Notes under the pieces: model-generated
Seen by the model: the letters and a program-made list of their open reading frames with translations, nothing else
Database searches by the model: none
What the model was told of the DNA's origin: nothing
Translations under genes and position numbers: made by a program
Shown here: piece after piece, positions 12,667 through 54,646 of the stretch
Position numbering within the stretch: position 1 is the stretch's first letter
Layout: each line of letters opens with the position of its first letter
Origin: an uncultured delta proteobacterium
Lineage (GTDB): Bacteria > Desulfobacterota > Desulfuromonadia > Desulfuromonadales > BM103
Assembly (NCBI GenBank): GCA_963715335.1
Contig: CAVQRZ010000005.1
Coordinates: forward strand, 148,578-212,577
Direction: 5' to 3'
Length of the DNA stretch: 64,000 nucleotides

Positions 12667-13488
12667 TCAGCCGATACTGCCGAGGCTGGCCAGGGACACC
12701 ATCATATCTTTCCGGACGAGCCCTGCATCGCCCAGCACCATCAATGCATTCTTGCCGACACAGGCAAAGCCTTCTGCAGCAAGAAGTCGGCGGGCCGGTG
12801 AAGAAGCAAGGGCGTCAACCACAACTTCGACATGAGGGTCCGCAGCAATGAGAATTTTTTGCAGCAGCAGCCGGTTGGCTCTCGGACAGCGGGAGGGCGA
12901 ATACCAGGGCCCGATGATCTGCAGGCCAGGCTCACGCTGGAGCAGCGCGACCGAGCCATCACAGGCGAAGGCCTGACCACACACGCTAAGGGCACCAAGC
13001 AGGACGGTCCGGTCCTCACCCCATGCGGCCCGATCCTGATTCCGCAGGAGTTGCTCCGCGTCGTTCTCGAACCCGGCAGCCTGACCACAACCTGCTCTTT
13101 TGCCGATTATCCACCTCTCGATTTTGTCGACCAGAACGAACCCGGATTTTTCATAAATTGGCCGGCCCATTTCTGAAGCCGTCAACCAGATGGTCTCCAG
13201 GTTTTGAGCCTGCAGCGCCGAGAGTGCCGCCATGAACAGTTGCGAACCGTGACCCCGGCCCCGCAGCTGCTCCGGCACGATCAGGTTGCCGATCCAGCCG
13301 CTGCGCTGGTAGGCAACCGAGGTCACCAGGCCACAGAAGATCTGTCCCTTCTCCAGGACCCGCGCATAACAGGGCCACGATTCCCTGAATAGTTGACGTT
13401 CGGTTTCGGGGACGCGCCAGCCCTCTGTCTCTGCAATGGTGTGAAAATTATCCCAATCGGATTTTTCTGCGAGACGGATCTTTTTCAT
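12667..13488 (-). CDS. GNAT family acetyltransferase
   Basis: GWIGNLIVPEQLRGRGHGSQLF (motif A), WLTASEMGRPIYEKSGF. Confidence 0.8.
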   Translation of the reverse strand: MKKIRLAEKSDWDNFHTIAETEGWRVPETERQLFRESWPCYARVLEKGQIFCGLVTSVAYQRSGWIGNLIVPEQLRGRGHGSQLFMAALSALQAQNLETIWLTASEMGRPIYEKSGFVLVDKIERWIIGKRAGCGQAAGFENDAEQLLRNQDRAAWGEDRTVLLGALSVCGQAFACDGSVALLQREPGLQIIGPWYSPSRCPRANRLLLQKILIAADPHVEVVVDALASSPARRLLAAEGFACVGKNALMVLGDAGLVRKDMMVSLASLGSIG

Positions 13489-13503
13489 CTTTGTTGAACG
13501 GAA

Positions 13504-13566
13504 GAAGCCCACAGAACACAATGCTCCATGGGCTTCCTCACCTGAAGGAGGTACACGTATGCACCT
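13504..13566 (-). promoter_or_regulatory. ANTAR-like twin hairpin overlapping a terminator (GNAT leader)
   Basis: Minus strand: AGGTGC-ATACGT-GTACCT, then GGT-GAGGAA-GCC overlapping stem GAAGCCCATGGAGCA-TTG-TGTTCTGTGGGCTTC. Loop 1 deviates from consensus and the U tail is weak. Confidence 0.5.
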
Positions 13567-13581: not shown

Positions 13582-13597
13582 AGCAACAGCCGTGCCA
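13582..13597 (-). promoter_or_regulatory. Sigma54 (-24/-12) promoter of the GNAT gene
   Basis: Minus strand TGGCACGGCTGTTGCT (GG-N10-GC). IHF consensus TATCAGGAGGTTG at 13617-13629 just upstream. Confidence 0.8.
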
Positions 13598-13745: not shown

Positions 13746-14885
13746 TCAGGCCACCTTGAGACCGGCACTGTAAAGCCGTACCAGGTCGAGGTCAGACAAT
13801 GAGCGCTTGTTGCTCTGCGCCACAAGGCGCACCTGCTCGAGAAGCAGGTTAGCAGCCCTGTCATCAAGGTGGATGCCGAGTCGCTCAAGGCGATCTTGCA
13901 GACCATGACTGCCAGAGTGCTTACCGACCACCATGTGTCGGCTCAAACCGACCTCGGCCGGGTCGTAGCCTTCGTAGTTGCCGGGGTATTTGAGAACACC
14001 ATCAGTATGCAGCCCCGACTCATGGGAAAAAACCTTCTCGCCGACCACGGCCTTCCATTCCGGAACCGGTCGGCAACTGGCCTGCCCGACCAGTCGGGAC
14101 AGTTCAAGGAAGCGGCCGGTGTCGATCGACAGATCAATACCGCAGGCGTATTTGAGCGCCATGACGACTTCCTCTAAAGCCGCGTTGCCGGCCCGTTCGC
14201 CAAGGCCGTTGACCGTGGTGTTGACGAACCGGGCACCGCCCCGGATACCGGCGATCGCGTTGGCCGTGGCCATGCCGAGGTCGTTGTGGGTGTGGACCTC
14301 CAGGTCGAGATCGCCCCTGGAGGCCAGATACCTCACCTTGTCGTAAGTGGCAAAAGGATCGAGGATGCCGAGGGTGTCACAGAAGCGGAAACGATCAGCG
14401 CCGAGGTTGCGGGCAATCGACATCAGCTCGACAAGAAAATCGAGATCGGCCCGGCTGGCATCTTCACCGCCGACCGAAACATACAGATCATGCTGCTTGG
14501 CAAAACCCAGCGCCTTCTTGAGCTGCTCCTTCACCCAGTTGCGATCCTTGCGCAGCTTGTGCCTGATATGGATATCCGAGACCGACAGCGAGATGTCGAC
14601 GGCCTGCACTCCGCTGTCGATCGACGCCTGTATATCGGAAATGACCGCCCGGTTCCAGGTGATCAGGCGGGCGTTCAGACCCAGGTCGACCAGCTTCCTG
14701 ACTGAAGCCTGCTCCGCCCTGCCCATGGCCGGGATGCCGCATTCCAGTTCGCCAACGCCGGTTTCGTCGAGCATGCGGGCGATACGGATCTTTTCTTCAA
14801 GGCTGAAGACGACTCCCGCGGTCTGCTCACCGTCACGTAAGGTTGTGTCGTCGATGATGATTTGTGGTGTGTCGATTTCAGGCAT
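13746..14885 (-). CDS. nifV: Homocitrate synthase
   Basis: DTTLRDGEQTAGVVF, RFRFCDTLGILDP, HTHNDLGMATAN, NGLGERAGNA, FSHESGLHTDG; nif context. Confidence 0.93.
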   Translation of the reverse strand: MPEIDTPQIIIDDTTLRDGEQTAGVVFSLEEKIRIARMLDETGVGELECGIPAMGRAEQASVRKLVDLGLNARLITWNRAVISDIQASIDSGVQAVDISLSVSDIHIRHKLRKDRNWVKEQLKKALGFAKQHDLYVSVGGEDASRADLDFLVELMSIARNLGADRFRFCDTLGILDPFATYDKVRYLASRGDLDLEVHTHNDLGMATANAIAGIRGGARFVNTTVNGLGERAGNAALEEVVMALKYACGIDLSIDTGRFLELSRLVGQASCRPVPEWKAVVGEKVFSHESGLHTDGVLKYPGNYEGYDPAEVGLSRHMVVGKHSGSHGLQDRLERLGIHLDDRAANLLLEQVRLVAQSNKRSLSDLDLVRLYSAGLKVA

Positions 14886-15294: not shown

Positions 15295-15310
15295 TGGCAA
15301 GACTCTTGCT
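15295..15310 (+). promoter_or_regulatory. Sigma54 promoter of nifE-nifN-nifQ
   Basis: TGGCAAGACTCTTGCT (GG-N10-GC) about 115 nt before the nifE ATG. Confidence 0.75.
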
Positions 15311-15425: not shown

Positions 15426-16778
15426 ATGGCAGATAAGCCAAAAATCAAAGAACTGCTTGACGAGAGCGCCTGCAGCCACAACAAGGCCAGGAAAGTCGCC
15501 TGTAATGCACCTACTCCCGGGGCAACAACCGGAGGCTGCGCCTTTGAAGGCGCACAGATATCGCTGTTCCCTTATGCCGACGCCGCCCATCTTGTGCATG
15601 GGCCGATGACCTGTCTCGGCACGTCCTGGGAAACCCGCGCCACCGGCACCAGCTGGCAGGGACGCGACCTGACCCAGATGGGCTTCACCACCGACATCAA
15701 CATCAACGACGTGGTCTTCAGCGGTGAAGAAAAAGTCTCTGCCTCGATCGATTACATCGTCGAGCGCTACCAGCCTGAAGCTGTATTCGTCTACAGCACC
15801 TGCGTCACCGCACTGATCGGCGACGATATCGACCTGCTCTGCAAACGAGCCGCAGAGAGACATGACATCCCGGTGATACCGGTGCACGCACCCGGCTTTG
15901 TCGGCAGTAAAAACCTGGGCAGCCGCCTCGCTGGCGAAGCTGTACTGGCCCATCTGGTCGGAACGAAAGAGCCTGACCAAACCACCCCCTTCGATATCAA
16001 CCTGATCGGTGAGTACAACGTCACCGGCGACATGTGGCAATACACGCCGCTGCTCGAGGAGCTCGGCATCCGTGTACTGTCCACCTTGAGCGGCGACGGC
16101 AGGGTCGCACAGATTCGCGCCGCCCATCGGGCCAGGCTCAACGTCATTGTCTGCGCCAAGTCGCTGATCTCACTGACCAGGAAAATGGAGGAGCGCTACG
16201 GCATTCCGTCAATATCCCTCTCATTCTATGGCAAGCGTGACACCAGCGAGGGCTTGCTTGCCATCGCCCGGGCACTCGGTGATGCCGACCTGATTGTCAG
16301 GACGAAAAAACTGGTCGCGCGCGAAGAGCGGAAACTTGATGAAAAGCTGGCGCCTTACAAAGCCTTCTTCCAGGGCAAGAAAGCCGTGTTGAATACCGGT
16401 GGCAACAAGACCTGGTCGATCGCGGCCGCCCTGCAGGACCTCGGCATCGAGGTGGTGGCGACCGCGGTCAAGAAAGCCACCGAGGATGATCGCGAGAAAG
16501 CCCGCCAGACTCTCGGCAAAAACGGCGTGCTGATGATGAACCCTGGCGTCGAGCAGGCAAAGCTGATCGATGAAACCGGCGCCGACCTGTTGCTCGCCGG
16601 CGGTCGCAGCCTCTACACAGCGATCAAGAAGGGGATTGCCTTTGCAGATGTCAACCAGGAGAAGAAAAAGAGCTACGGCGGCTACGACGGTTTGATTAAC
16701 CTTGCTGAAGACCTCAAGAACGCCCTGCAGAATCCGGTCTTTAAAAATGTCGCCAGGAGGGCCCCATGGGCGAGGTAA
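15426..16778 (+). CDS. nifE: FeMo-cofactor scaffold subunit NifE
   Basis: GGCAFEGAQI, AAHLVHGP..C..SW, VFVYSTCVTALIGDD, GFVGSKNLG, TGGNKTWS; ends with APW. Confidence 0.93.
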   Translation: MADKPKIKELLDESACSHNKARKVACNAPTPGATTGGCAFEGAQISLFPYADAAHLVHGPMTCLGTSWETRATGTSWQGRDLTQMGFTTDININDVVFSGEEKVSASIDYIVERYQPEAVFVYSTCVTALIGDDIDLLCKRAAERHDIPVIPVHAPGFVGSKNLGSRLAGEAVLAHLVGTKEPDQTTPFDINLIGEYNVTGDMWQYTPLLEELGIRVLSTLSGDGRVAQIRAAHRARLNVIVCAKSLISLTRKMEERYGIPSISLSFYGKRDTSEGLLAIARALGDADLIVRTKKLVAREERKLDEKLAPYKAFFQGKKAVLNTGGNKTWSIAAALQDLGIEVVATAVKKATEDDREKARQTLGKNGVLMMNPGVEQAKLIDETGADLLLAGGRSLYTAIKKGIAFADVNQEKKKSYGGYDGLINLAEDLKNALQNPVFKNVARRAPWAR

Positions 16779-18100
16779 CCCGCAAGAGAGAGAAGCAGCT
16801 ACAGGTCAACCCCTTCAAGCTCAGTCAGCCGATGGGTGCGACCCTGGCCTTTCTGGGCGTCGACAGGTGCATGCCGCTGATGCACGGGGGTCAGGGGTGT
16901 ACCAGCTTCACCAAGGTCTTCTTCACCCGGCATTTCTGCGAACCGGTCGCCATCCAGACCAGCGCGGTCACCGATGCGATCGCCGTCCTCGACGGCGGCG
17001 ACTACAGCATCGTTGAATCGGTGAAGAATATTACCGGGAAAATGTCGCCAAGCCTGATCGGCCTGCACAGCACCGGTCTGCCGGAAACCAAGGGCGACGA
17101 CCTCCGCGGCGTTGCCAGTCAGATCGGGTTCCCGATGGTCACTGTCAACACCCCGGATTATGAGGGGGGATTGGAAAGCGGATGGGCACTGACCTGCAAG
17201 GCGATGATCGAACAGCTGGTCAAACCGGGCGGAGATGTCGATAACAACAAGCTGGTCCTCTTGCCGCACGTCAGCCTGCAACCGATAGAAGTCGAAAAGA
17301 TCAAGGAGTTCATCGCGAGTTTCGGTTTCAACGTCTTCGCCCTGCCCGACCTGTCGACGTCTCTCGATGGCCATCTCGGCGAAAGACAGGCGGCTCTTTC
17401 CAGCGGGGGCATTGCCGTGGAGGAGATTCGCTCGCTCGGTGATGCCGGGCTGGTGATCAGCGTCGGCGATTCGATGCAGGGCTGCGCGACTGCGCTGCAG
17501 AGGAAAAATGCCGAGATGCGTCATCATCACTTCGCTCATCTGCACGGACTCGAGGCGACCGACTCACTCGTCGAGAAGCTTCTGGCGGAGACTGGCTTCA
17601 GCTCCCCTCCGCAGCCGGTCGCACGCTGGAGGCAACGCCTGCAGGACGCCATGCTCGACAGCCATTTCTCTCTCGGCCAGACCCGCTTTCTGGTCGCGGC
17701 CGAACCGGATCAGCTGGCCGGGATCTGCCAGTCTCTTTATGACGCTGGCGGTAAGGTGGCTCTGGCGATCGCACCCGTCGATTCATCGCAACTGGACAAG
17801 GTGAGGGCCGACCAGGTGATGGTCGGCGATCTGGAAGATGCCGAGGACATGGCCGACAATTACGGCGTCATGATCGGCAACTTTCACTGTGAATCGATTG
17901 CACATCGACAGCAGAAGGGACTTGTCATCAGGGGGTTCCCGAACTGGGAGCAGGTGGGAAATTCGTTGAAGAATGATGTTTTGTACGAGGGGGGATGCTA
18001 CTTCCTGTTCGAGACGGCGAATATCGCCTCAGGGATGCGTTCCGATTCCTACCGTAAAAGCAGTCACTGTGTTATCGAGGAACGGCTAAAGAGAAAATGA
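16766..18100 (+). CDS. nifN: FeMo-cofactor scaffold subunit NifN
   Basis: VNPFKLSQPMGATLAFLG..PLMHGGQGCT, LPDLSTSLDGHL, RLQDAMLDSHF; AGGAGG 5 nt before the ATG. Confidence 0.92.
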   Translation: MGEVTRKREKQLQVNPFKLSQPMGATLAFLGVDRCMPLMHGGQGCTSFTKVFFTRHFCEPVAIQTSAVTDAIAVLDGGDYSIVESVKNITGKMSPSLIGLHSTGLPETKGDDLRGVASQIGFPMVTVNTPDYEGGLESGWALTCKAMIEQLVKPGGDVDNNKLVLLPHVSLQPIEVEKIKEFIASFGFNVFALPDLSTSLDGHLGERQAALSSGGIAVEEIRSLGDAGLVISVGDSMQGCATALQRKNAEMRHHHFAHLHGLEATDSLVEKLLAETGFSSPPQPVARWRQRLQDAMLDSHFSLGQTRFLVAAEPDQLAGICQSLYDAGGKVALAIAPVDSSQLDKVRADQVMVGDLEDAEDMADNYGVMIGNFHCESIAHRQQKGLVIRGFPNWEQVGNSLKNDVLYEGGCYFLFETANIASGMRSDSYRKSSHCVIEERLKRK

Positions 18101-19107
18101 CCGGCTACACCGAAAAAATCCGACAATGGGCGATGGATACCCGCTACACAGGCCGCCTGGTCGATGCCGATGGCATCGGCGAAGTCGGTCTCGGCTTCTC
18201 CGAGGCCGGCACTCGCCTGGCAGTCAGGTTTGCCCTCAAGACCCGGTTCGACCGGGTCACGGACATCCGTTTTCAAGTATTCGGTTGCGGCTTCACGATC
18301 GCCGCATGCGCTGTTGCCGCGGACATGTCGGCAAGAAACACCCTCGAAAACGTTAACCGGATCAACCCACGACAGATCGATAAAGCCCTCGATGGGCTCC
18401 CAGCAGAGCGAAGTTACTGCGCTGTACTGGCTATCGAAGCGCTGCATGCCGCAGTGAAAAGCGCTCGCAATGGTCGCCAGCCGGTCCAGGCAAGCCTGTC
18501 TGCAGAAACCGATCACGGGCCTCGGGTCACGGCAGAAAACCCTGTTTATACAGCCCTGGTCAACAGCCCGCAACCGAGCCATGTCACCTGGGAGGACCGG
18601 CACCTGTTCGCCTGCCTGTTGGCTGTTGCCGCCAGCGAACATTGCGATCTGGCAGAGGCTCTCGGTCTGGACGCCGATGACCTGGCAGCGATCCTGGATC
18701 ATTTTTTCCCTTCTGCCGACCATGACCTCCTTGACCGGCATGCCGTTCCCTGCGAAAATACGCCCCCGGAGGTCAACGAGGACATCCTGAAAATCCTGCT
18801 CCGCCACATTCCCATTGAGGCCGGCGCTCGTGACCTGCTCATCGCAACCTCACTCTGTAAAATCCTGGCTGCACGTGCCGCCCATCCCGGCCACCTCTGG
18901 ATCGCCATGGGCCTGTTCGAGAGGCCGCAACTGAGCGCCGCAATCCGCCGCCACCTCCCCACCCTGGCGAAGGCCAACAGGCAAAACATGCGCTGGAAGC
19001 GTTACCTGTTCAAGCAGGTCTGTGATTTGAACGGGGGAGTGATGTGCAAGTCGCCGAATTGCGGCGTATGCAGTGACTATGCCTTGTGTTTTGCACGTGA
19101 CGAGTAA
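18097..19107 (+). CDS. nifQ: Fusion of a NifU/IscU-like N-terminal domain and a NifQ domain
   Basis: N-terminal IRFQVFGCGFTIAAC..LDGLPAERSYCA (IscU-like). C-terminal HLWIAMGL..NRQNMRWKRYL..CKSPNCGVCSDYALC (NifQ Cx4Cx2Cx5C). ATGA overlap with nifN. Confidence 0.8.
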   Translation: MTGYTEKIRQWAMDTRYTGRLVDADGIGEVGLGFSEAGTRLAVRFALKTRFDRVTDIRFQVFGCGFTIAACAVAADMSARNTLENVNRINPRQIDKALDGLPAERSYCAVLAIEALHAAVKSARNGRQPVQASLSAETDHGPRVTAENPVYTALVNSPQPSHVTWEDRHLFACLLAVAASEHCDLAEALGLDADDLAAILDHFFPSADHDLLDRHAVPCENTPPEVNEDILKILLRHIPIEAGARDLLIATSLCKILAARAAHPGHLWIAMGLFERPQLSAAIRRHLPTLAKANRQNMRWKRYLFKQVCDLNGGVMCKSPNCGVCSDYALCFARDE

Positions 19108-19271: not shown

Positions 19272-20138
19272 ATGAGGATCGACAACGACCTGGAGCAGGC
19301 GTTGATCGATCTCTATATCCCCCTGGCGGCGTGCCTTGCAGGACAAGCCGATGAATATGGTGCAACCCGGGTCATCGGTGTCAATGGTGCTCAAGGATCC
19401 GGCAAATCAACCTTGTGCACGCTGTTGCAGATTGTACTGCAAGAGGGTTTTGCAAAACGTGTCGCATCCTTCTCAATTGACGATATCTACCTGCCCCGCG
19501 CTGAGCGTGTGAGACTGGCAGAAAAGGTTCATCCTCTCCTGATGACCCGAGGTGTCCCCGGCACCCATGATGTTGCCCTTGGCCTGCAATTGCTGACCGA
19601 GCTCAGAGCCCTCAAGGCAGGCCAGTCTGTCGATCTCCCGGTATTCGACAAGTCCATCGACGATCGTTCGCCGGAGAAAGATTTCCGCCAGGTGAAAGGC
19701 CCCGTCAACCTGGTCCTTTTCGAAGGCTGGTGCGTCGGCGCCAGGCCCCAGCGGGATCAGGCCCTGTCGATACCGGTCAACCGCCTTGAGCGTCTTGAGG
19801 ACCCCGACCGGGTCTGGCGGCGCTATGTTAACAAACAGCTGGGAAATGACTACAAACAGCTGTTCAGTGAAATCGACTTCCTGATCATGCTCAAAATCCC
19901 GGGAATGTCCAGCGTCATGGAGTGGCGCAGCAAACAGGAACACAAGCTGGCCAAGGCCTCTCCGGGTGGACAAAGGATCATGGACAGCGCCGCGCTGCAG
20001 CGGTTCATCATGCATTACGAACGACTGACCAGGGCGATGCTGACAGAGATGCCGGAACGGGCAGACTTGATCTTTATGCTGGACCAGAAACACCAGATCG
20101 AGAGTGTGCAGATTAACAACGAGCGCCTTGTACTATAA
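19272..20138 (+). CDS. P-loop kinase, GLYK/Tda10-like (D-glycerate 3-kinase-like)
   Basis: GAQGSGKST, SIDDIYL, TRGVPGTHD, FDKSIDDR, LFEGWCVG, FIMHYERLT. Confidence 0.7.
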   Translation: MRIDNDLEQALIDLYIPLAACLAGQADEYGATRVIGVNGAQGSGKSTLCTLLQIVLQEGFAKRVASFSIDDIYLPRAERVRLAEKVHPLLMTRGVPGTHDVALGLQLLTELRALKAGQSVDLPVFDKSIDDRSPEKDFRQVKGPVNLVLFEGWCVGARPQRDQALSIPVNRLERLEDPDRVWRRYVNKQLGNDYKQLFSEIDFLIMLKIPGMSSVMEWRSKQEHKLAKASPGGQRIMDSAALQRFIMHYERLTRAMLTEMPERADLIFMLDQKHQIESVQINNERLVL

Positions 20139-20522
20139 AAAGTTCGGTGACAGTTCCCTTTTTTAACGTCGGGTCGATGAAATCCGACAACTGTCACCGA
20201 ATTCCATACCAACAGAGACCCCTGGCCGATCCCACGTGCAGATTCGCGACAGCTTGAACCCTTCACCCGTAAATTCTGCACAGAAGCCGACATTAAAGAC
20301 TTGCCGTTCAAGCCATCAACTCTTGTATAACTGCCCCCTGATTTAAGCCTTCCGGCGATTTCCAAAAAAGACGTTAGATTATTGTAATTTTTTGTCAAAC
20401 AGTTATAGTCACGTAGTTCACCGTTAAATAAAACCTTGCCTGGGACGATTGTACGAGAACTTTTGTTTGTTTACACAAGTTCCATGTCGTATCGCTCTAA
20501 CTAAACACTGCCGGGAGATGTT

Positions 20523-22604
20523 ATGTTTTCGAGACTCATTGCCCTGTTCTTTTCAATCACGCTCATTTTCTGTTCATCACCGCTCTTCGCTGCAGAGCCG
20601 ATCATGCTCGAAGAAATTGTCGTCAAGGGAGCAGAACTCCCCTCAAATGAAGAGACCTTGACGATTCGCGAGGTGCGCGAGAGCCCGGCACGCGACATCG
20701 GAGAAGCGGTCGAAATGCTCCCGGGCCTGTTCGCCCTGCGCAAGGGCGCGATTGCCAACGACATCGTACTGCGCGGCCAGCAGGGGGATGACATTAACGT
20801 GCTGATGGACGGGGTGCGCGTCCAGGGAGGATGTCCATCAAGGATGGACCCGCCGGCGTTCCATTTCGATTTTGCCGAAGTTGAGTCAATCGAAGTCGTA
20901 AAAGGTCCGTACGATCTGCGCTATGCCGGCGGCATGGGGGGATTGGTCAATGCCGTCAGCAAGAGTCCCAAACCGGGGCTGCACCTGTCTGCAGTCGCAA
21001 CTTACGGTTCCTACGAGCAGGTGCAAACCTCGGTGACCGGATCCTATGCCACCGACAGCTCCTCCGTGCTGGCGGGATACGCCTACAAATACTCACTGCC
21101 GCCTAAGTCCGGCGACGGCAAGCGGATCACCGATATCTATCCGGCGACCAGCCCGAACCGTTATCGTGACAGCAAGCTGGATTCCAGGGCCTATGACATC
21201 AATACCGCCTGGGTCAAAGGTGGTTACCAGCTGACCGGTAAAACCCGAACCGAACTCGGCTTCGCCTACCAGGATGCCGACCATGTCCTCTACCCGGCCC
21301 TGTACATGGACGCCGAATATGACCGGACCAAGCGCCTCAACTGGACGACCACGGTCGATTCCCCTGCAGAGCTTATCGACGAGATCAAGCTCCAGCTCTA
21401 CTGGACCGATGTCGAGCATCTGATGCACGACGAATTCCGCGTAAGCTCCACGAGACCGATGGTCACCAGGGATTATATGATGGAAACCGACGCCGACACC
21501 ACCATCGTCGGCGGCAACCTGAGCGGTGCCGCAGCCGTAGGCCCCGGGCAGTTGAACGGTGGCCTCGACCTCTTCTATCGCAACTGGGACGCCACCAACC
21601 GGAGTGCCATGTACATGGGCTACGCAGCGCAGCCGATGATTCCCGATGTCGACGAGAACCAGGTCGGTTTGTTCACTGAGTATACCTGGCCGGTCACGGA
21701 TCAGGTCAAAGTCAAGGGCGGCCTGCGCCTCGACTACGCCGACGCCGATGCAACCAAGCTCGACAGCAACCGGCTCAACACCCTTTACCAGCCATACTTT
21801 GCCGGTGAGAAGCTCCATGCAGACAACGACTTTTTCGAGCCATCGGCCAACCTGCAGCTCTTCTGGCAAGCCACGCAAGGGATCGAACTCTTCGCCGGCC
21901 TGGCTTCCGCCAGCCGCATGCCGGACCCCCAGGAGCTCTACATCGGCCTGCCGCGGATGGCACCGTCAACCAACTGGATCGGCAACCCGGCCCTTGATCC
22001 ACCGCGCAACAACCAGGCCGACCTCGGTATCAAGTTCACCGGGGAGACGTTCTTCGTTAACAGCTCAATCTTCTACAGCCGGATCGACGACTACATCAAT
22101 ATCGCCAATCTTGCTGACCCGGATGGCCTGGGCATGCTGCCGGCAGCCAAAAGCTATCAGAATATCGATGCCAGGCTCTGGGGCGGTGAACTGTCCTCAC
22201 AGGTCTCGCTGCCACTCGACCTCTACCTGATGGGGAATCTTTCCTACACCGAGGGGGAGAATCTCGATACCGATGAGCCTCTTGCCGAAATCCCACCCCT
22301 GAGCGGTTCGATCGGCCTGCGCTATGACAACGGCACGTGGTTCGCTGAAATTCAGGAAAAATTTGCCGCCAAGCAGGATCGCGTCGACGACGACCTCAAC
22401 GAGGAAGAAACCAGCGGCTGGGGGATCACCGATCTCAAGGCCGGGGCCAACCTTGATCGCTGGTCGGTGATTGCCGGCGTCAACAACCTGTTCGACAAGT
22501 TCTACTACACGCACCTTTCCTACCAGCGCGATCCGTTTCGGACCGGCGCAAGAGTACCGGAGACAGGAGCTTTTGCCTTCGTGACGGTCATGTACAAATA
22601 CTGA
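20523..22604 (+). CDS. TonB-dependent receptor, OprC/NosA-like
   Basis: Signal peptide, LEEIVVKG TonB box, plug GGCPSRMDPP (CxxxM), EHLMHD (HxM), Met-rich loops, aromatic C-terminus. Confidence 0.8.
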   Translation: MFSRLIALFFSITLIFCSSPLFAAEPIMLEEIVVKGAELPSNEETLTIREVRESPARDIGEAVEMLPGLFALRKGAIANDIVLRGQQGDDINVLMDGVRVQGGCPSRMDPPAFHFDFAEVESIEVVKGPYDLRYAGGMGGLVNAVSKSPKPGLHLSAVATYGSYEQVQTSVTGSYATDSSSVLAGYAYKYSLPPKSGDGKRITDIYPATSPNRYRDSKLDSRAYDINTAWVKGGYQLTGKTRTELGFAYQDADHVLYPALYMDAEYDRTKRLNWTTTVDSPAELIDEIKLQLYWTDVEHLMHDEFRVSSTRPMVTRDYMMETDADTTIVGGNLSGAAAVGPGQLNGGLDLFYRNWDATNRSAMYMGYAAQPMIPDVDENQVGLFTEYTWPVTDQVKVKGGLRLDYADADATKLDSNRLNTLYQPYFAGEKLHADNDFFEPSANLQLFWQATQGIELFAGLASASRMPDPQELYIGLPRMAPSTNWIGNPALDPPRNNQADLGIKFTGETFFVNSSIFYSRIDDYINIANLADPDGLGMLPAAKSYQNIDARLWGGELSSQVSLPLDLYLMGNLSYTEGENLDTDEPLAEIPPLSGSIGLRYDNGTWFAEIQEKFAAKQDRVDDDLNEEETSGWGITDLKAGANLDRWSVIAGVNNLFDKFYYTHLSYQRDPFRTGARVPETGAFAFVTVMYKY

Positions 22605-22606
22605 GC

Positions 22607-23383
22607 ATGCCTTTCGCAACCAGGCACCGGGCAGCATTTCCCTCCCAGGAGGAACTCTGGAAGCAACCGCTGCTGCTTTCGTTGATCATTCACGCCGCTT
22701 TGCTCTGGGTTGCTACAACGTGGTGGCAGAAGAGTTATCGGGAGTTCAAACAACCGCCGCAGGTTATCGAAGTGGAGGTCGTCGAACGTACCGTGCCGGC
22801 GCCGGTTGCTCCTTTGGTAGCAAGGCCGGAACCTGTGCGACCGGCGCCAAAAGTACGCCCCTCTGCACCTCCGGCTCAACCGCAACCGAAGGAAATGGCC
22901 GTCACCCCGCCAAGACGGCAAGCGCCGACACAACGACAGGCCCCGGCTGCTTCGCAAGCTGAGCCGGTCCAGGTTGTGCCGGTCTCGGCAACCGGAGAAA
23001 TGGGCCAGCTTGACGAAAGACCGGCAGCACAGGACAACATGGCAACTAAGACAACGCTCGAGGCGAGCCCTGCGGTCAGCCTTGAGCAGACGATCGACAT
23101 TGAAAAGGCCTACCAACAACAGCTCAAGGAACTGATCGAAAGATACAAGCAGTATCCTCTGCTCGCCCGCAAGGGAAGGCAGCAGGGGCCGGTCTTGGTC
23201 GAGTTTAGCCTACGTAAGACGGGAGAGGTGGGCTCGGTTCAGGTGACACAATCATCAGGACATCGCCTGCTCGACCGTGCCGCACTCCAGGCTGTCAGGT
23301 CCGTAGACAAGTTCCCCGCCTTACCTGAAGGGTTACCTGAAGACACAAAATTCCGGATCTCCATCAACTTTTCTCTCGAGTGA
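22607..23383 (+). CDS. tonB: TonB energy transducer
   Basis: SLIIHAALL TM anchor, Pro-rich linker, YPLLARKGRQQG.V.V.F..SSGHRLLDRAAL C-terminal domain. Confidence 0.85.
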   Translation: MPFATRHRAAFPSQEELWKQPLLLSLIIHAALLWVATTWWQKSYREFKQPPQVIEVEVVERTVPAPVAPLVARPEPVRPAPKVRPSAPPAQPQPKEMAVTPPRRQAPTQRQAPAASQAEPVQVVPVSATGEMGQLDERPAAQDNMATKTTLEASPAVSLEQTIDIEKAYQQQLKELIERYKQYPLLARKGRQQGPVLVEFSLRKTGEVGSVQVTQSSGHRLLDRAALQAVRSVDKFPALPEGLPEDTKFRISINFSLE

Positions 23384-23421: not shown

Positions 23422-24159
23422 CTAAAGTAAAAACATCTTCCCCCCGGCCATCACCAGCATCAACGACATCGCCTTGAGAATGGTTGCCACCGGCAGGTGA
23501 CGGCTGCCACAGAGCGCGCCGATTGTGCCGCCGAGCAGCGCAGCCCCTGCAAGCAGCGGCGCAAACTCGGGGACGTGCTGCAGGCTGCTCATATGGCCAA
23601 GCAGGCCGGAGATCGAGTTGACCAGGATAAAGAGGGCTGCAATTCCAGAGACTTCACGAACCCTGGCCCAGCGCAGCAAAATCATCAAGGGGCTGAGAAA
23701 GATCCCGCCACCCACGCCGATCATGCCGGAGGCGAAACCGAGCACGCCCCCGACTACCATGGCCAAAGGAATATTGGGCGCCTTGGCATCGTAATCATCT
23801 TGCTTGCGGCGGGCGAACAGGCGCCACGCGGCAAACAACAGTACTACGCCGAGTGCCGGGCGATAGAGTTCCGGCGGCAGGCTGAAGGTTCCGCCGAGGA
23901 AACTAGCCGGAATCGAGGTGATCACGAAGGGCCAGAAGATCCGCCACGAGAACTGCCTGGCACTGCAGTAGAGATAGGTTCCAACCCCGGCGACGACGAT
24001 ATTGAGCAGCAAGGCTGTCGGCTTGAGCGCCTCCGGATGCAAACTGAACAGCGCCATTACCGCCAGGTAGCCTGAGGCCCCGCCATGACCGACACTGGCG
24101 TACATCATGGCTACGATGAAGATGCAAACGGCCAGAAAGGGGAGAAGTTCTGGACTCAT
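23422..24159 (-). CDS. TSUP (TauE/SafE) family permease
   Basis: YASVGHGGASGY, SGMIGVGGGIFLSP, FILVNSISGL; very hydrophobic; starts 36 nt after the nifB stop. Confidence 0.85.
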   Translation of the reverse strand: MSPELLPFLAVCIFIVAMMYASVGHGGASGYLAVMALFSLHPEALKPTALLLNIVVAGVGTYLYCSARQFSWRIFWPFVITSIPASFLGGTFSLPPELYRPALGVVLLFAAWRLFARRKQDDYDAKAPNIPLAMVVGGVLGFASGMIGVGGGIFLSPLMILLRWARVREVSGIAALFILVNSISGLLGHMSSLQHVPEFAPLLAGAALLGGTIGALCGSRHLPVATILKAMSLMLVMAGGKMFLL

Positions 24160-24195
24160 GATATGCCTCCTGAAGTCGGCAGCTTATAGTTGCGG

Positions 24196-25062
24196 TTAGG
24201 CGCTGAGTGCTTCCAGGTCAATATCCTGCCCGACGACACCTGCCGCATCGGCCCGGCACTGCTTGCAATGCCTGGCCTGGGAGAGGATCAGTTCTGCCTG
24301 GTTGCGCAACATCTCCATGGTTGCGACGGACGGTGGTTCGATATCCCTGAAGAGGCCGATCGGGATCACCGGGATGATGTTCATCATTTCGGCACCCAGC
24401 TCGCGGACTTTCACTGCAAGGTCGAGCGTTTCATGATCGTTGATGCCGGGGATGTAGACATGGTTGACCTTGACCATCATGCCGGCAGCAGCGGCATATC
24501 GGACACCGTCGAGCTGACGCTTGAGCAGCACAGAAGCGCCTTCTTCGCCATAAAGACGCTGGCCATGAAAATTGACCCACTCATAAACCTTGGCCCCGGT
24601 TTTCGCAGCCAGTGCATTGATCGTGACGGTAACGCTATGCACGCCCAGTCTCTGTAGCTTATCGAGATGTTCGGTCAACAGCAGGCCGTTGGTCGAAAGA
24701 CACAGGGTCATCTCCGGGAACGCTTGCTTGATAAGTTTGAACGTCTCAAAGGTCTTCGGGTTGGCCAGCGGATCACCTGGGCCGGCGATACCGACGACCT
24801 TGAGCCGGGCGCCACCGTTCATTTCCATGTGGCGCTTGACAATCCGCACCCGTTCAATCGCCTGTTCGGGATTCAGAACCTTGCTGGTCACACCGGGACG
24901 GCTTTCATTGGCACAATCAAATTTTCTCTCGCAGAACCCGCACTTGATATTACAGCCCGGGGCAACCGGCAGGTGAATCCTGCCAGACTTGCTATGGTCT
25001 CCGCCAAAACAGGGGTGATCGGTCTGGCGCTGCATCTTCATCATCGGGCATCCGGTAGCCAT
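24196..25062 (-). CDS. nifB: NifB radical SAM protein (short form, no NifX domain)
   Basis: HPCF, RIHLPVAPGCNIKCGFC, NESRPG, AGPGDPLAN, CLSTNG, CKQCRADAAG; AAGGAG RBS before ATG 25062. Confidence 0.92.
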   Translation of the reverse strand: MATGCPMMKMQRQTDHPCFGGDHSKSGRIHLPVAPGCNIKCGFCERKFDCANESRPGVTSKVLNPEQAIERVRIVKRHMEMNGGARLKVVGIAGPGDPLANPKTFETFKLIKQAFPEMTLCLSTNGLLLTEHLDKLQRLGVHSVTVTINALAAKTGAKVYEWVNFHGQRLYGEEGASVLLKRQLDGVRYAAAAGMMVKVNHVYIPGINDHETLDLAVKVRELGAEMMNIIPVIPIGLFRDIEPPSVATMEMLRNQAELILSQARHCKQCRADAAGVVGQDIDLEALSA

Positions 25063-25082
25063 GATGGTTCTCCTTGCTTTCA

Positions 25083-25143
25083 AGAATTCAGTATCCAGAA
25101 TTCAGAATGAGAAATTCTACTGGCTACTGAATTCTGGATTCCC
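25083..25143. repeat. Heptamer tandem-repeat hairpin (AATTCAG-type) upstream of nifB
   Basis: AATTCAG TATCCAG AATTCAG AATG...TTCTACT GGCTACT GAATTCT GGATTCC. Confidence 0.6.
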
Positions 25144-25193
25144 GTTTTTTATTGGATGAGTCCACGCCTCTGCGTGAAACATTCTTTAAATAT

Positions 25194-25263
25194 AAAAACC
25201 CCGCGAAAACGTACTTCGCGAGGCGTCTTTGCCTTTTTCAGATGCGATACGACCCTGTATCGC
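25194..25263 (-). promoter_or_regulatory. ANTAR twin-hexaloop element with overlapping terminator (nifB leader)
   Basis: Minus strand GCGATAC-AGGGTC-GTATCGC, then AGGC-AAAGAC-GCCT, overlapping CCTCGCGAA..TTCGCGGGG-TTTTT. Confidence 0.82.
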
Positions 25264-25281
25264 CGGGTTTTTTTAAAAGTT

Positions 25282-25313
25282 GGCAGGGGAGGCCTTTCGG
25301 CACCTCCCCTGCC
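25282..25313 (-). terminator. GC-rich stem-loop upstream of the nifB attenuator (terminator or mRNA-processing/stability hairpin)
   Basis: 11-bp stem GGCAGGGGAGG/CCTCCCCTGCC, followed on - by AACTTTT. Confidence 0.45.
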
Positions 25314-25361
25314 CATGCCTTAGGCTATTGCATCTCTGGAAAAGGCATAAACTGACCGAAT

Positions 25362-25434
25362 CGTAAGGCGCAAAACGCGAGGGGCAACAAATTAAATGCT
25401 TCTCTCATTTCGCACCCCGCACTTTGCGCCTTAG
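25362..25434. repeat. Heptamer-type tandem-repeat hairpin
   Basis: TAAGGCGCAAAACGCGAGGGGC...TTTCGCACCCCGCACTTTGCGCCTTA. Confidence 0.6.
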
Positions 25435-25809
25435 TTATTTGTGTTCGCATTTCTCCGTGTTGCCTGCACATTTACCGTCACACACCGCGTCATGCGCCAT
25501 CTTCAGGGCCGGCTCGATCGGGCCTTCCACGCTGATGACCTTGAAACCAAGTTTTTCCAGTTCCTGTCTGGGCAACTCGCCGATCATGGCAGTCACAACC
25601 GCCTTGCAATCTTTGAGAGCTTCAGCAATGCCGTCAAACTGCACGTGCCGGAACGGGTGTTCCAGGTCGAAAGTGCAATACTTGTCGACCTTGACCTCAT
25701 CCACCTGGACCGGGTTCCCCTTGCGGTATTTGAAGATACGGAACTTTTCAGCATGGCCGAAGTGCTGGTCGACTTCGGTTCCTGTTCTAGAGGCGACTGC
25801 GATAAGCAT
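25435..25809 (-). CDS. NifB/NifX-family cofactor-binding protein
   Basis: IAVAS..VDQHFGHAEKF..KYC..LKDCKAVVTAMIG. Confidence 0.85.
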   Translation of the reverse strand: MLIAVASRTGTEVDQHFGHAEKFRIFKYRKGNPVQVDEVKVDKYCTFDLEHPFRHVQFDGIAEALKDCKAVVTAMIGELPRQELEKLGFKVISVEGPIEPALKMAHDAVCDGKCAGNTEKCEHK

Positions 25810-25830
25810 AATTTACTCCGCAAATTATGC

Positions 25831-25900
25831 GGTCGCTGGCAGCTTGAGGCTGGTGGCTGGAAAAATACCAGCCACTAGCCCCCAGTCCCCAGTCCCCGCT
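25831..25900. repeat. Heptamer tandem-repeat hairpin (CCCCAGT-like)
   Basis: GGCTGGTGGCTGG...CCAGCCACTAGCCCCCAGTCCCCAGTCCCC. Confidence 0.6.
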
Positions 25901-25902
25901 TT

Positions 25903-26172
25903 TCAGATTTCCATAGTTTTGAAAGTAAAGCACTTCTTCGGGCAGGCGACGCCGCAGCCGGCGCAACCGATACAGTTGTCCTGGTTGACAATCATCATGA
26001 TCATGCGGGTCGAATCTGTCTCCTCGTCGACCAGGTCCTGCGGTCCGAGCACCTTGCGGGCACAGGACTTGAAGCAGCGTCCGCAACCGATGCACTTCTC
26101 ATTGTCGATAGCCATGGCGAAGGTCGGCGTCCACTCCGCTCCGCCGTATGTTACTCCTGTTAGTAAAGCCAT
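25903..26172 (-). CDS. fdxB: nif-specific 2[4Fe-4S] ferredoxin (ferredoxin III type)
   Basis: G.T.GG.EWTP N-terminus, CIGCGRCFKSC and CIGCAGCGVACP. Confidence 0.8.
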   Translation of the reverse strand: MALLTGVTYGGAEWTPTFAMAIDNEKCIGCGRCFKSCARKVLGPQDLVDEETDSTRMIMMIVNQDNCIGCAGCGVACPKKCFTFKTMEI

Positions 26173-26227
26173 TTTTCATCTCCTCACGCTATTATTGAAC
26201 TACCAAACTTGCTTTAATAATCTGGGA

Positions 26228-26284
26228 AGTGCGAGGTGAGAGAAGCGAAAAAGCCTTTTCTCACTTCGCGCTTCGCGTCTCACG
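26228..26284. repeat. Heptamer tandem-repeat hairpin (CTTCGCR-type)
   Basis: AGTGCGAGGTGAGAGAAGCGA...TCTCACTTCGCGCTTCGCGTCTCACG. Confidence 0.65.
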
Positions 26285-26660
26285 AAAGTCTTTCACCCTT
26301 CAACATCGCCTTGCGCAACCATGGTGGGGGATTCCCTTTGAGCACTTCCTGGAGCTTCTCGACCACCACGGCTATCGGTTCCCGCTCCTTGCTTTTGATC
26401 GGGTGGATTTTCTTTGCTACCAGGCGGGCGGCCGCCGGGCCGCCAATCTCGCCGACATAAACCAGGGCACAGTCCGCCAGCGCCGCACCGCGGGCCTCGA
26501 TCTTGTCGTCGCTGTGCCCCGGCGCATCCTCAGACAGCACCTGGACCACGCCGCTGAAAGCAGCATCCTCCGGCCCGATATCCCAGATGTAAAACTCCTC
26601 GGCCTGGCCGAAATGCTCATCAACGTGCACCTTGTCAGTGCTGGCGAATGCGACTTTCAT
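26280..26660 (-). CDS. nifX: NifX
   Basis: MKVAFASTD..VDEHFG..DDKIEAR..DCALVY..IGGPAAARLV..HPIK..PPPWLRKAM. Confidence 0.9.
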   Translation of the reverse strand: MKVAFASTDKVHVDEHFGQAEEFYIWDIGPEDAAFSGVVQVLSEDAPGHSDDKIEARGAALADCALVYVGEIGGPAAARLVAKKIHPIKSKEREPIAVVVEKLQEVLKGNPPPWLRKAMLKGERLS

Positions 26661-26736
26661 GCTCAATCCTTTTTTCGGGTTACCGACTATTTCCAGTCGT
26701 CTGGTTCGAATCATTATTTACATCCTGATTTGGGAT

Positions 26737-26858
26737 CGGGAGCGAGCAATTTTGTGCAAGGTCAAGGAAGCCAAGCAAGCGCGCGGAGGCGTAGTGCTTT
26801 ACGCCGCACAAGTGCTTGTGCAGGCTGACGCAGAGATTGTGCAAAAGGGCCGCTCCCG
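26737..26858. repeat. Structured palindromic intergenic element (MITE/REP-like)
   Basis: Terminal CGGGAGCG/CGCTCCCG and TTTTG/CAAAA pairing; central GGCGTA-GTGCTT-TACGCC hairpin flanked by CAAGCGC/GTGCTTG. Confidence 0.6.
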
Positions 26859-26865
26859 GCCAAAA

Positions 26866-28329
26866 TCAGCGCATCATCTCAAACCACTGGTCTTCACAAG
26901 TCTCATCCTTGATATCGAGGTACTTGTTGGCGATCATGGTCAGCATGTTGATAGCGCCGTTGTAACCGATCACCGGGGAACGGTGCAGGTTGACCCGGTC
27001 GATGATCGGGAAACCGATGCGGAAGAGCGGGATCCCTGCATCGCGGGCGGCCCACTTGGCGTGTGTGTCACCGATGATGCCGTCGACCGGATCGGTGACC
27101 AGCAGGCTGCGCATGTGCCAGAGGTCTTTGTTGATGTAGCATGTGCAACCTTCACCGAAGGGCGAGGAGGCGAGCAGCGCATCCATCTCTTTCTGGAATT
27201 TCTTGGTCGCCCGCGAACAGAGCACGTGCCAGGGGCGTGCGCCCATCTCGAGCAGGAAGGAGACAATGCCGAGCAGGTAGTCGGGGTCGCCGGCCACGGC
27301 AAACTTGCGGCCGTGCAGGTACTGGTGAGCATCGGTCATGGCGTCGACTGCCAGGGCACGCTCTTTTTTCAGCGCCTCGGGGACCGGCTTGTCGAACATC
27401 TCGGAGAGCTTCAGGATCAACTCATCGGTCTTCTTCACCCCGAACGGCATCGGCAGAATTGCCTTTGCGCCGGTGAATTCGGATTCTATCCACTTCATGG
27501 TATTGACGGTCGAGTACTTCTGAAAAGAGATGGTGGCCTTGCCGTTGACCGACTCGGCGGCGGCTTCAATCTTGGTGCCGCCGGGATAGAGCTTGTACTC
27601 GCCGTCACAGCCTGAGTCGAAAACATCGGAGACGTCGGCAAGCATGGTGTAGGGGATCCCCATCAGTTCGCAGATGCGCTTGTACTCGCGCAGGTTGCCG
27701 ACGTTGCCGTCGAAACCGGGGATGATGTTGAGCTTGCCGGTGCACTTGCCTGCGATGCTCTTCCCCTCAGTAAGAGTTTCGAGGATGCTCTTCAGCATCG
27801 CGTCGTAGCCATGGATGTGGGTGCCGTTGAAGCTCGGGGTGTTGGCGTAAGGGGTAGGCACTTCTTCCGGCAGATGACCCTGCAGCTTGGCATTCTTGAT
27901 GAAGGCGGTCAGGTCGTCACCAATAACCTCGGGCATACAGGTGGTATAGACCGGGATCATCTTCGGCTTGTACAGGGCGTAGGCGTTCTCGAGGCCCTCG
28001 AACAGGTTGTTCTGGCCGCCGAACACCGCGCCGTCCTCAGTCATGGCGTCGCAGGTCGCGGCGGCCGGTTCACGATAATGACGGCTGAAGGTGCTGCGGA
28101 AATAAGAGGCACACCCCTGGGAACCATGCACAAACGGCAGGGCACCTTCGAAACCTGTGGCCACCATCTGCGCACCAAGAGGCTGGCAGGCGTGGGCCGG
28201 GTTGACCACCAGGGCGGTCCGGTCAAAGTTCTTCTCTTTATATTCTTCGCTATTGATCCATTCCTTGACCCTGGCGATTTCTTCAATTGGGGTCTCGGTG
28301 ACGAATTTTACTGCTGCTTCTGCGCTCAT
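26866..28329 (-). CDS. nifK: Nitrogenase MoFe protein beta chain
   Basis: VNPAHACQPLGA, HGSQGC, MTEDGAVFGG, TTCMPEVIGDD, TPSF, IGFPIIDR; start MSAEAA with AAGGAG RBS. Confidence 0.96.
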   Translation of the reverse strand: MSAEAAVKFVTETPIEEIARVKEWINSEEYKEKNFDRTALVVNPAHACQPLGAQMVATGFEGALPFVHGSQGCASYFRSTFSRHYREPAAATCDAMTEDGAVFGGQNNLFEGLENAYALYKPKMIPVYTTCMPEVIGDDLTAFIKNAKLQGHLPEEVPTPYANTPSFNGTHIHGYDAMLKSILETLTEGKSIAGKCTGKLNIIPGFDGNVGNLREYKRICELMGIPYTMLADVSDVFDSGCDGEYKLYPGGTKIEAAAESVNGKATISFQKYSTVNTMKWIESEFTGAKAILPMPFGVKKTDELILKLSEMFDKPVPEALKKERALAVDAMTDAHQYLHGRKFAVAGDPDYLLGIVSFLLEMGARPWHVLCSRATKKFQKEMDALLASSPFGEGCTCYINKDLWHMRSLLVTDPVDGIIGDTHAKWAARDAGIPLFRIGFPIIDRVNLHRSPVIGYNGAINMLTMIANKYLDIKDETCEDQWFEMMR

Positions 28330-28343
28330 CGTTTCACTCCTTC

Positions 28344-28466
28344 GCGGAGGCGCGAGATGCGAGGTGAGAGGTGAGAAACCCCCAAACCAACCTTTTGCCT
28401 CCGAATCCGTTAACCAATCAACCTTAGATTGGTAATTGCTTTTGACTTTCGCGTCTCGCGCTTCCG
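28344..28466. repeat. Heptamer tandem-repeat inverted pair in the nifD-nifK spacer
   Basis: CGGAGGCGCGAGATGCGAGGTGAGAGGTGAGA ... CTTTCGCGTCTCGCGCTTCCG. Confidence 0.65.
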
Positions 28467-28476
28467 TCAAATCCCC

Positions 28477-29919
28477 TTAGAAAGGCGACTTGACCAATCC
28501 CCAGGTCGGGCTGTTGATTGCCATATCGATATCCCGGGCAAAGATCTTGAAGCCTTCGTAGCCATGGTACGGCCCGGAGTAGTCCCAGCTGTGCATCTGG
28601 CGGAACGGGATGCCGGCTTTCTGGAAGACGTACTTCTCCTTGATGCCGCTGCCGACCAGGTCGGGCTTGAGCTCTTCGACGAATTTCTCCAGCTCGAACT
28701 CGGAGACGTCGTCGTAGATCAGAGTGCCCTTGGCCATCTCCGGAGCAGTGCGGTCGTAGTCGTCCTGGTGGGCGAACTCATAGCCTGCACCGGTGATCTG
28801 AATACCGAGGTCTTCGTAAGCACCGATAGTGTGGCGCGGACGCAGGCCGCCGACAAACAGCATGGCGGTTTTGCCATCGAGGCGCGGTTTGTACTCGTCG
28901 ATCACCTCCTGCATGACCGGCTGGTACTTTTTGATCACTTTCTCGACGTTCTTCTTGATCTTGTCATCGAAACACCCGGCGATGGCACGCAGGCTCTCTT
29001 CGATCTTGGTCGGGCCAAAGAAATTGTACTCGAGCCAGGGGATCCCCCACTTCTCTTCCATCACCTTGCACATGTAGTTCATCGAACGGTAGCAGTGGAT
29101 CAGGTTGAGCTTAACCGAGTGCGTGGCACCGATCTTTTCCACTTCGCCGTCACCGGTCCAGACCGACTTGACGTTGAGGCCGATTTCTTCGAGGATCGGC
29201 TTGGCAGCCCAGACGTCGCCGCCGATGTTATAGTCGCCGATCAGGGCAACGTCGTAGGGGCCGGCCTCTTCTTCAAACTTGAACTTGCCGATGATGTGGT
29301 CGCGGATCGAGTCGTTGGAGATATGATGGCCGAGTGATTGGGAGACCCCGCGGAAGCCTTCGCAGTTGCAGGGCACGACCAGCTTGTCGAGTTCATTCTC
29401 CATTTTCTTGGCGACGGCGTTGATATCATCGCCGATCAGGCCGACCGGACACTCGGAGAGAATCGACATCCCCTTGTTGAGCGGAAACAGCTCGTCGGCT
29501 TCACGCAGCAGCTTCTCGAGCTTGATGTCACCGCCGTAGACGATGTCGCGCTCCTGGAAGTCGGAGGTGAAATCCATCGGGAAGGAGGTAACGCCGGGGA
29601 TCCCCTGCATCAGGTTGCGCCGGGTCCCCCAGCTGTAGACGCCACAGCCGATCGGGCCATGAGAAACATGGACCATGTCGCGGATCGGACCCCAGACAAC
29701 ACCCTTGGCGCCGGCGTAGGCACAGCCGCGCTGGCTCATCACGCCGGGGACCACCTTCTTGTTCGATTTAACCGCACAGTTCGACACGGTCGGTTCATTG
29801 GCGCCGAGATGCGGCGCGCGTTTCTTCGCCGTTTTTTCCGGCATCTCCGCCAGGGTTTCAGCGATCAATTTCTCGGTTTTCTCTATTGTGACGCCCTTGA
29901 TGGGCTTTCTTTCAGCCAT
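28477..29919 (-). CDS. nifD: Nitrogenase MoFe protein alpha chain
   Basis: [25 protein letters not shown] (FeMoco Cys), GYEFAH, QMHSWDY (FeMoco His); 480 aa with no large internal insertion. Confidence 0.97.
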
Positions 29920-29936
29920 TTATGATCTCCTTTATC

Positions 29937-30008
29937 GGAGGTGCGAGATGCGAATTGAGAGGTGCGATAAGGCTTTTTTGCACTTCGCGTTTCGCGCTTC
30001 GCACTTCG
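29937..30008. repeat. Heptamer tandem-repeat hairpin in the nifH-nifD spacer
   Basis: GGAGGTGCGAGATGCGAATTGAGAGGTGCGA...TGCACTTCGCGTTTCGCGCTTCGCACTTCG. Confidence 0.7.
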
Positions 30009-30012
30009 TCAA

Positions 30013-30939
<927 letters not shown>

Positions 30940-51472: not shown

Positions 51473-51473
51473 C

Positions 51474-53279: not shown

Positions 53280-53300
53280 CCTTACGGCGGTTCAATGACA

Positions 53301-53339: not shown

Positions 53340-53378
53340 GAGTCTGAAGCCGCATCTTGCTGAAGGCTTCAGGTGGGA

Positions 53379-54614: not shown

Positions 54615-54646
54615 CAGCCCGTCCGGCTGTCCGGAAAAGGAGGCCA

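Follow-up and report, generated by a model that had tools for sequence, protein, structure and literature searches.

A NifQ fusion protein of the Desulfuromonadales carries a U-type domain that has lost scaffold ligands

The fusion protein and the closest described systems

In Azotobacter vinelandii, NifQ is a 22-kDa single-domain monomer that is loaded in trans: on direct contact, apo-NifQ acquires a [4Fe-4S] cluster from NifU, IscU also binds apo-NifQ and loads it poorly, and NifQ converts [4Fe-4S] to [3Fe-4S] and [Mo-3Fe-4S] and gives molybdenum to NifEN/NifH, the exchange of iron for molybdenum needing, according to the authors, a further mediating protein (Barahona et al., JBC 2024, PMC11605450). 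Two sentences in the discussion of that paper mention a fusion of a U-type domain to NifQ in Geoalkalibacter and Malonomonas rubra and conclude from it that cluster assembly takes place in the N-terminal U domain; the same passage stands in a 2021 preprint (bioRxiv 10.1101/2021.12.06.471366). Here we analyze such a fusion in a 64,000-nucleotide stretch (hereafter, the window) of contig CAVQRZ010000005.1 from an uncultured delta-proteobacterium, in which a single open reading frame (ORF) of 336 amino acids (positions 18097..19107, forward strand) joins an IscU/NifU_N-like domain, or U domain, to NifQ. The text of the four supplementary files of PMC11605450 does not contain the fusion, and no other treatment of it, nor any mention of lost ligands, was found in the literature searched, most subscription journals lying outside that search.

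Profile scans recovered both domains of the protein. Pfam NifU_N (PF01592) matches residues 4-122 with 65 bits (cut-off 22), and Pfam NifQ (PF04891) matches residues 171-333 with 147.9 bits (cut-off 27), in agreement with a preliminary description of this DNA that had read an IscU-like N-terminal half and a NifQ C-terminus from the letters alone. The motifs that it listed are likewise present, namely FGC (C64), AAC (C71), SYC (C108), a GEVGLGFSEAG segment devoid of the CGD cysteine, and the NifQ motif Cx4Cx2Cx5C. It had correctly recognized the loss of the first scaffold cysteine, but had overlooked the loss of an aspartate and a histidine, as well as a fifth invariant NifQ cysteine, C309. That the fusion is genuine, rather than a sequencing error, is borne out by the homologs: both domains occur in all 120 listed (of 482 found), with lengths of 331-367 amino acids, and the fusion is present in the cultured strains M. 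rubra DSM 5091, Desulfuromusa kysingii DSM 7343 and Geothermobacter hydrogeniphilus HR-1.

The protein shares the architecture and family of the fusion mentioned by Barahona et al., since it shares 52% identity with its counterpart from M. rubra DSM 5091 (L023), which presents both Pfam domains and the same motifs. The accessible part of that paper (PMC11605450) reports no experiment on the fusion and is silent on the missing ligands, which are absent from the M. rubra copy as well. The fusion architecture is thus already in print and uncharacterised, and the ligand loss of the U domain is the new point; the preliminary description likewise knew of no characterised example.

Ligand loss and conservation in the two domains

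The U domain (residues 1-126; 18097..18474) has the fold of IscU/NifU_N proteins (PF01592; TIGR03419; PDB 4EB5, 7C8M), as supported by the Pfam match, by structural prediction and by HH-align comparison with intact IscU (99.8%). The predicted structure of the fusion has a mean predicted local distance difference test (pLDDT) score of 83.2 and a predicted template modeling (pTM) score of 0.65, and its U domain superposes on Archaeoglobus fulgidus IscU (4EB5_C) with a Z score of 20.3 and a root-mean-square deviation of 1.6 Å over 118 residues, at roughly 33% identity to the IscU/NifU N-terminal scaffold. Searches of solved structures by sequence and by fold returned only U-domain matches, the NifQ part being barely sampled. 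The domain falls far below the equivalog cut-offs of the U-scaffold profiles, and the three-domain NifU profile TIGR02000 matches only over its positions 1-122 of 290 (70.5 bits against a cut-off of 273.3), the central ferredoxin-like and C-terminal Nfu domains being absent.

To define what sets the fused domain apart, we set 192 distinct fused U domains against 38 intact U proteins, hand-picked from the same class, the two groups being split by a score gap. The fused domains retain two of the five scaffold ligands, those corresponding to Cys63 and Cys106 of E. coli IscU, and lack the equivalents of Cys37, Asp39 and His105. The first-ligand loop (residues 31-44; 18187..18228) is four residues longer in 187 of the 192; no cysteine occurs anywhere in residues 29-47 of any of them, whereas CGD is present in 38/38 intact proteins, and only nine carry an aspartate within residues 36-43. 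This loop can be aligned in two registers, neither of which restores the cysteine or the aspartate, and model confidence is low at residues 32-40. The scaffold histidine is replaced by tyrosine or phenylalanine throughout (192/192), R105-x-Y107-C108 (18409..18420; R in 192, Y in 191 and F in one, C in 192) standing in place of K-x-H-C. Mouse ISCU binds its first iron through C35, D37, C61 and H103 and receives persulfide on C104 (PMC8924461), so that three of the four iron ligands are gone from the fusion and the equivalents of C61 and C104 remain. The same pattern of loss is found in the M. rubra copy and in three more divergent cluster representatives. As judged from these alignments, the ligand loss is complete and old.

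The loss is accompanied by new fixed residues. Cys64 (18286..18288), the counterpart of E. coli Cys63, is followed by an invariant aromatic, F/Y66, and Cys71 (18307..18309) is cysteine in 192/192 fused domains at a position held by serine (35) or alanine (3) in the 38 intact proteins. Also fixed in all 192 are C108, R44, F62, G63, G65 and R105, with Y4 in 187; Glu36, in the loop, is present in 155, and the hydrophobics L32, L41, F/Y66 and Y107 surround the old ligand site. Mean pairwise identity, calculated on 118 rows selected for their similarity to the query, is 65% for the U domain, 46% for the first half of NifQ, 81% for its second half and 38% for the linker (residues 127-165; 18475..18591; pLDDT below 50 at residues 135-139). 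The U domain exceeds both the first half of NifQ and the linker, which argues that it is under constraint and not decaying.

Part of this conservation maps to known contact surfaces. E. coli IscU touches IscS through Y3, Y11, G38, V40, K42, K59-G64 and K103, with Y11A tolerated and K103E disruptive (PMC2854127), and the IscU-IscU dimer face that aligns two clusters is formed by Y7, F61 and K104 (PMC13066941). The IscS-contact equivalents in the fusion are Y4, A12, R44, Q60-V61-F62-G63-C64-G65 and R105, of which Y4, R44, F62-G65 and R105 are kept, and most desulfurase and dimer contact residues are fixed among fused U domains. Given that the same tyrosine, phenylalanine and lysine serve both the IscS contact and the IscU dimer, the kept surface fits docking either on NifS or on an intact NifU.

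The NifQ domain (residues 171-333; 18607..19095), in contrast, is complete. It resembles A. vinelandii NifQ in its nif context and in the invariants C317-x4-C322-x2-C325-x5-C331 (a motif named in PMC4417242) and C309 (19021..19089), H266-L-W, R276, N294 and M-x-W-K, all present in 123/123 fused NifQ sequences and shared with 112 single-domain representatives, in which the five cysteine columns are cysteine in 112/112. The fused form differs in lacking the equivalents of two acidic residues usual in single-domain NifQ, D270 (102/112) and E/D226 (106/112; E in A. vinelandii NifQ), a loss that suggests co-adaptation of the U and NifQ domains. In a quick tree built from 12 fused NifQ sequences together with 48 single-domain ones, the fused proteins form a clade with a Shimodaira-Hasegawa-like approximate likelihood ratio support (SH-aLRT) of 99, nearest to rows P0137 and P0157, and the tree names no donor. 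A single sequence on a 2-kb read-derived contig (P0218) presents a ferredoxin (4Fe-4S) domain ahead of NifQ, which may be a second type of NifQ fusion or a read-through.

A further comparison is offered by SufU and SufE, which share a U-type fold that no longer builds clusters and carry sulfur on a loop cysteine (C41 and C51, respectively). The fused domain scores Z 13.4 to SufU and 6.5 to SufE, but lacks that loop cysteine, and for the SufS/SufBCD system with which they work, a search for SufBD (PF01458) gave no match in the genome. By membership, the protein is therefore a NifQ and belongs to the fusion family already noted, and its U domain fails on its ligands both as an IscU scaffold and as a SufU/SufE carrier. 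It may nonetheless work like a carrier derived from one of these.

Distribution of the fusion and candidate roles of the U domain

A genome scan confirmed 131 stretches with the fusion, of which 79 loci were kept. Most are titled as Desulfuromonadales or unplaced delta-proteobacteria, the exceptions being two 'Geobacteraceae' bins, one 'uncultured bacterium' and one Pedobacter; the latter (L051) is a typical nifEN-fusion locus with 57% GC content, and its title is probably a mislabel. The fusion lies directly after nifN in 57 of the 79 loci (56 plus L079, which the identity filter had dropped), after nifB-tauE in six and with other nif genes nearby in three; ten start the contig and three have no nif gene nearby. 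The overlap of the fusion ATG with the nifN stop codon (ATGA) is atypical, a gap separating the two genes in most relatives.

To place these loci in a wider context, we sampled 300 genomes of the class evenly, 150 from Desulfuromonadales and 150 from the rest, the order names (Desulfuromonadales; Geobacterales) being those we take from genome titles and general taxonomy. NifQ is present in 78/150 genomes of the order, fused wherever the contig shows the gene, and was not found in any of the 150 genomes sampled outside the order, although nifD is carried by 133 of these. Some of the genomes contain withheld bases, and absences are accordingly given as 'not found'. Within the order, nifD is present in 95/150 genomes; both genes occur in 74, NifQ only in four and nifD only in 21. 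A single-contig genome (G120) has modC at the expected position of the fusion. Two apparent examples of a stand-alone NifQ in the order (G242, G298) were rejected because they run off their contigs inside the U domain; a third candidate (G224) is a 52-codon fragment. With a profile of the fused U domain, 76 strong matches were obtained among 301 genomes, each in a genome of the order that has NifQ; three genomes with NifQ gave no such match, and two of them are cut by contig ends. No stand-alone U domain of this disarmed type was found among the 301 (score gap from E 5.5e-36 to 5.9e-29). In a phylum sample of 401, NifQ exceeded the cut-off in five genomes, all within this order, and the best 150 of 4628 matches in a 50%-identity library include four full-length fusions, the rest being fragments, single-domain NifQ and isolated oddities. 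Based on this sampled distribution, the fusion looks like a single event retained in one order. When 22 fused U domains are placed in a tree with 38 intact ones, the fused domains form one clade, on a very long stem for which the meeting of long branches is flagged, and the tree does not separate housekeeping NifU from three-domain NifU as donor.

Several other U-type and nif arrangements were noted in these genomes. At one locus (L117:1372-2571, forward strand), a U-type domain with its motifs intact (CGD, GC, HC) is joined to a P-loop protein labelled Mrp/ApbC-like by eye from the sequence, and one genome of the order without NifQ (G264; L085 and L086) contains a second, differently built nif cluster with contiguous nifD-K-E-N-B, below the nifN cut-off. 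A 'nitrogenase-associated protein' (TIGR01616), which we take to be NifO-like, is encoded near the fusion in 19/79 loci (e.g. L006:9433-9858, reverse strand) and was not found in the genome of the window.

The preliminary description had also pointed out that the window holds no separate nifU or nifS. This is true of the window, but another contig of the same genome (C23) encodes iscR-nifS-nifU-mnmA with an intact pair retaining all ligands, NifS and NifU_clost (TIGR03419) both scoring above cut-offs; therefore, their absence from the window is no argument. A second close desulfurase is encoded in the genome, SufBD (PF01458) was not found in the 43-contig assembly, and a further U-type match is present in 75 of the 76 fusion-bearing genomes. 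None of the 79 fusion loci, some of which are short, contains a desulfurase gene.

Our preferred reading, held tentatively and at rather less than an even chance, is that the U domain would act as a non-assembling relay, docking on the housekeeping NifS/NifU and passing ready-made clusters to NifQ. The surface comprising Y4, F62 and R105 would pair with cluster-loaded housekeeping NifU, in an IscU-dimer-like arrangement, or with NifS; Cys64 and Cys108 would hold the finished cluster briefly and weakly, like a two-cysteine carrier; the tethered NifQ cysteine motif would take it over, and later steps would proceed as in other NifQ proteins. Docking, cluster holding and hand-over by the fused U domain are inferred. 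The relay is favored because the ligand loss is complete, the domain is constrained, most of the contact residues are kept, an intact donor is present, no desulfurase lies in the 79 loci, and both NifU and IscU bind apo-NifQ. A number of observations weigh against it. Chief among them is the invariant Cys71, for which a two-cysteine relay gives no explanation, and the equivalents of Y11 (A12), V40 (A42), K59 (Q60) and T60 (V61) are changed, G38 being register-dependent (R40 in the strand register). Because the kept residues fit NifS as well as NifU, they do not separate a cluster relay from a sulfur relay. NifQ was not found in 21 of the 95 nifD-bearing genomes of the order, nor in the 150 others of the class, suggesting that the gene is dispensable in some lineages, and the model leaves the NifQ cysteine motif at pLDDT below 50. 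A predicted complex of the U domain (1-126) and NifQ (140-336) with [4Fe-4S], run without controls, scored 0.00 and is not used as evidence.

The first alternative, in line with the published reading (PMC11605450), is a rewired self-loading scaffold that would dock on NifS and build a cluster with a new ligand set, for instance Cys64, Cys71, Cys108, Glu36 or cysteines lent by NifQ. The three invariant cysteines, the frequent Glu36 and the largely kept IscS contacts speak for it, but the loss of three of the four first-iron ligands known from mouse ISCU (PMC8924461) makes it unlikely; the three cluster cysteines are described as invariant ligands in IscU structures (PMC13066941), and Cys71 stands two helix turns away from Cys64 at a position that is otherwise a small residue, Ser or Ala, and presumably buried. 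Further against it, no nifS lies beside the gene in the 79 loci and an intact scaffold is available in the genome. The preliminary description had similarly proposed a self-loading molybdenum donor: its connection of a U-type domain with the loading of NifQ finds support (PMC11605450), but self-loading is weakened by the two of five ligands, the complete NifS/NifU pair, the further U-type gene in 75/76 genomes and the lack of a desulfurase in the loci. Somewhat less probable still is that the domain relays sulfur, taking persulfide from NifS onto Cys108 or Cys64 and passing it to NifQ for cluster repair or sulfur-bridged molybdenum insertion. Cys108 corresponds to Cys104, which receives the persulfide (PMC8924461), the equivalents of Y3, K42 and K103 are fixed, and SufU is an earlier case of a U fold that has become a sulfur carrier; yet SufU and SufE use precisely the loop cysteine that the fusion has lost, persulfide transfer on ISCU needs a metal in the site (PMC8924461), which is dismantled here, and SufBD was not found in the assembly.

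At a probability a little lower again, the U domain would be a structural cap without transfer chemistry that covers or stabilizes the NifQ cluster, or links NifQ to NifEN. The new hydrophobics around the old site and the joint loss of D270 and E/D226 are consistent with such a role, for which, however, neither three invariant cysteines nor IscS and dimer contact residues would be needed. We consider it improbable that the domain is a metal-exchange module whose C64/C71/C108 site would strip iron from [4Fe-4S] or hold (thio)molybdate, enabling the Fe-for-Mo swap in one polypeptide. The mediating protein called for in PMC11605450, the new fixed cysteine set and the molybdate transporter genes (modBC) in 13/79 fusion loci would agree with it; against it, molybdenum or tungsten binding finds no support in the data, single-domain NifQ does without such a domain, and the 301 genomes yielded no stand-alone copy. 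Finally, an artefact in which a sequencing error has merged two genes, or a scaffold in decay, can be dismissed with near certainty. Even though a few metagenome copies are frameshifted (G164, G256), this idea is refuted by hundreds of independent full-length two-domain homologs, cultured strains included, and by the strong conservation of the U domain.

The nif region of the window and implications

The fusion is the last gene after nifE (15426..16778, forward strand; TIGR01283 above cut-off) and nifN (16766..18100, forward strand; TIGR01285 above cut-off), whose stop overlaps the fusion start. Divergent from nifE lies nifV (13746..14885, reverse strand; TIGR02660 above cut-off), and the run nifH-nifD-nifK-nifX-fdxN-nifX-like-nifB-tauE (23422..30891, reverse strand; family profile scans) converges on nifE-nifN-fusion, so that the window comprises a Mo-nitrogenase cluster, nifHDKENBXV. 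NifB is divided over two genes, one with the radical-SAM part only and one NifX-like (24196-25083 and 25435-25809, reverse strand), as in many relatives. The TauE/SafE-family permease gene that follows nifB (23422-24159, reverse strand) has this position in 23 of the 33 related loci with a nifB gene, and its product possibly transports sulfur or molybdenum oxyanions for cofactor synthesis. A GNAT-family gene after nifV (12667-13521, reverse strand) recurs in 28/79 related loci.

A scan of the window with what we take to be the sigma-54 -24/-12 consensus returned a site with one mismatch 117 bases upstream of nifE (15295..15309, forward strand); this site is a lead only, because 11 such matches were obtained in the window against 5.7 expected. 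An exact match (13583-13597) belongs to the GNAT-family gene. Sigma-70 and terminator scans of the window were at chance level.

The stretch between the fusion and nifB (19272-23383, forward strand) encodes a P-loop kinase-like protein and, together with TonB, a TonB-dependent receptor; the receptor pair is also found in the nif regions of two related loci (L008, L012). More than 30 kb from the fusion, the window encodes aldehyde:ferredoxin oxidoreductases, a TupA-like tungstate ATP-binding cassette transporter (tupABC) and moeA (50960-58973, forward strand); at that distance, the tupABC and aldehyde oxidoreductase genes have no bearing on the idea of the preliminary description that the scaffold may select Mo over W. 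A B12-binding domain and a partial radical-SAM domain occupy two overlapping frames at 35588-37190 (reverse strand), perhaps one frameshifted gene.

Taken together, the ligand loss contradicts the published reading of the fusion as cluster synthesis in an N-terminal NifU domain, an argument that needs revising because the fusion proteins cited for it lack the residues that such synthesis needs. With the U domain and NifQ in one chain, available in cultured strains and bearing three invariant cysteines, hand-over to NifQ becomes testable by mutation. The fusion also marks a difference inside a single class, since most Desulfuromonadales diazotrophs carry it and NifQ was not found in the sampled rest. 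Should loading of the fusion not require a matched NifU, nitrogenase engineering could gain a simpler part from it; and if the improbable metal-exchange explanation were true, the disarmed U domain would be the missing factor for the Fe-for-Mo swap in NifQ maturation.

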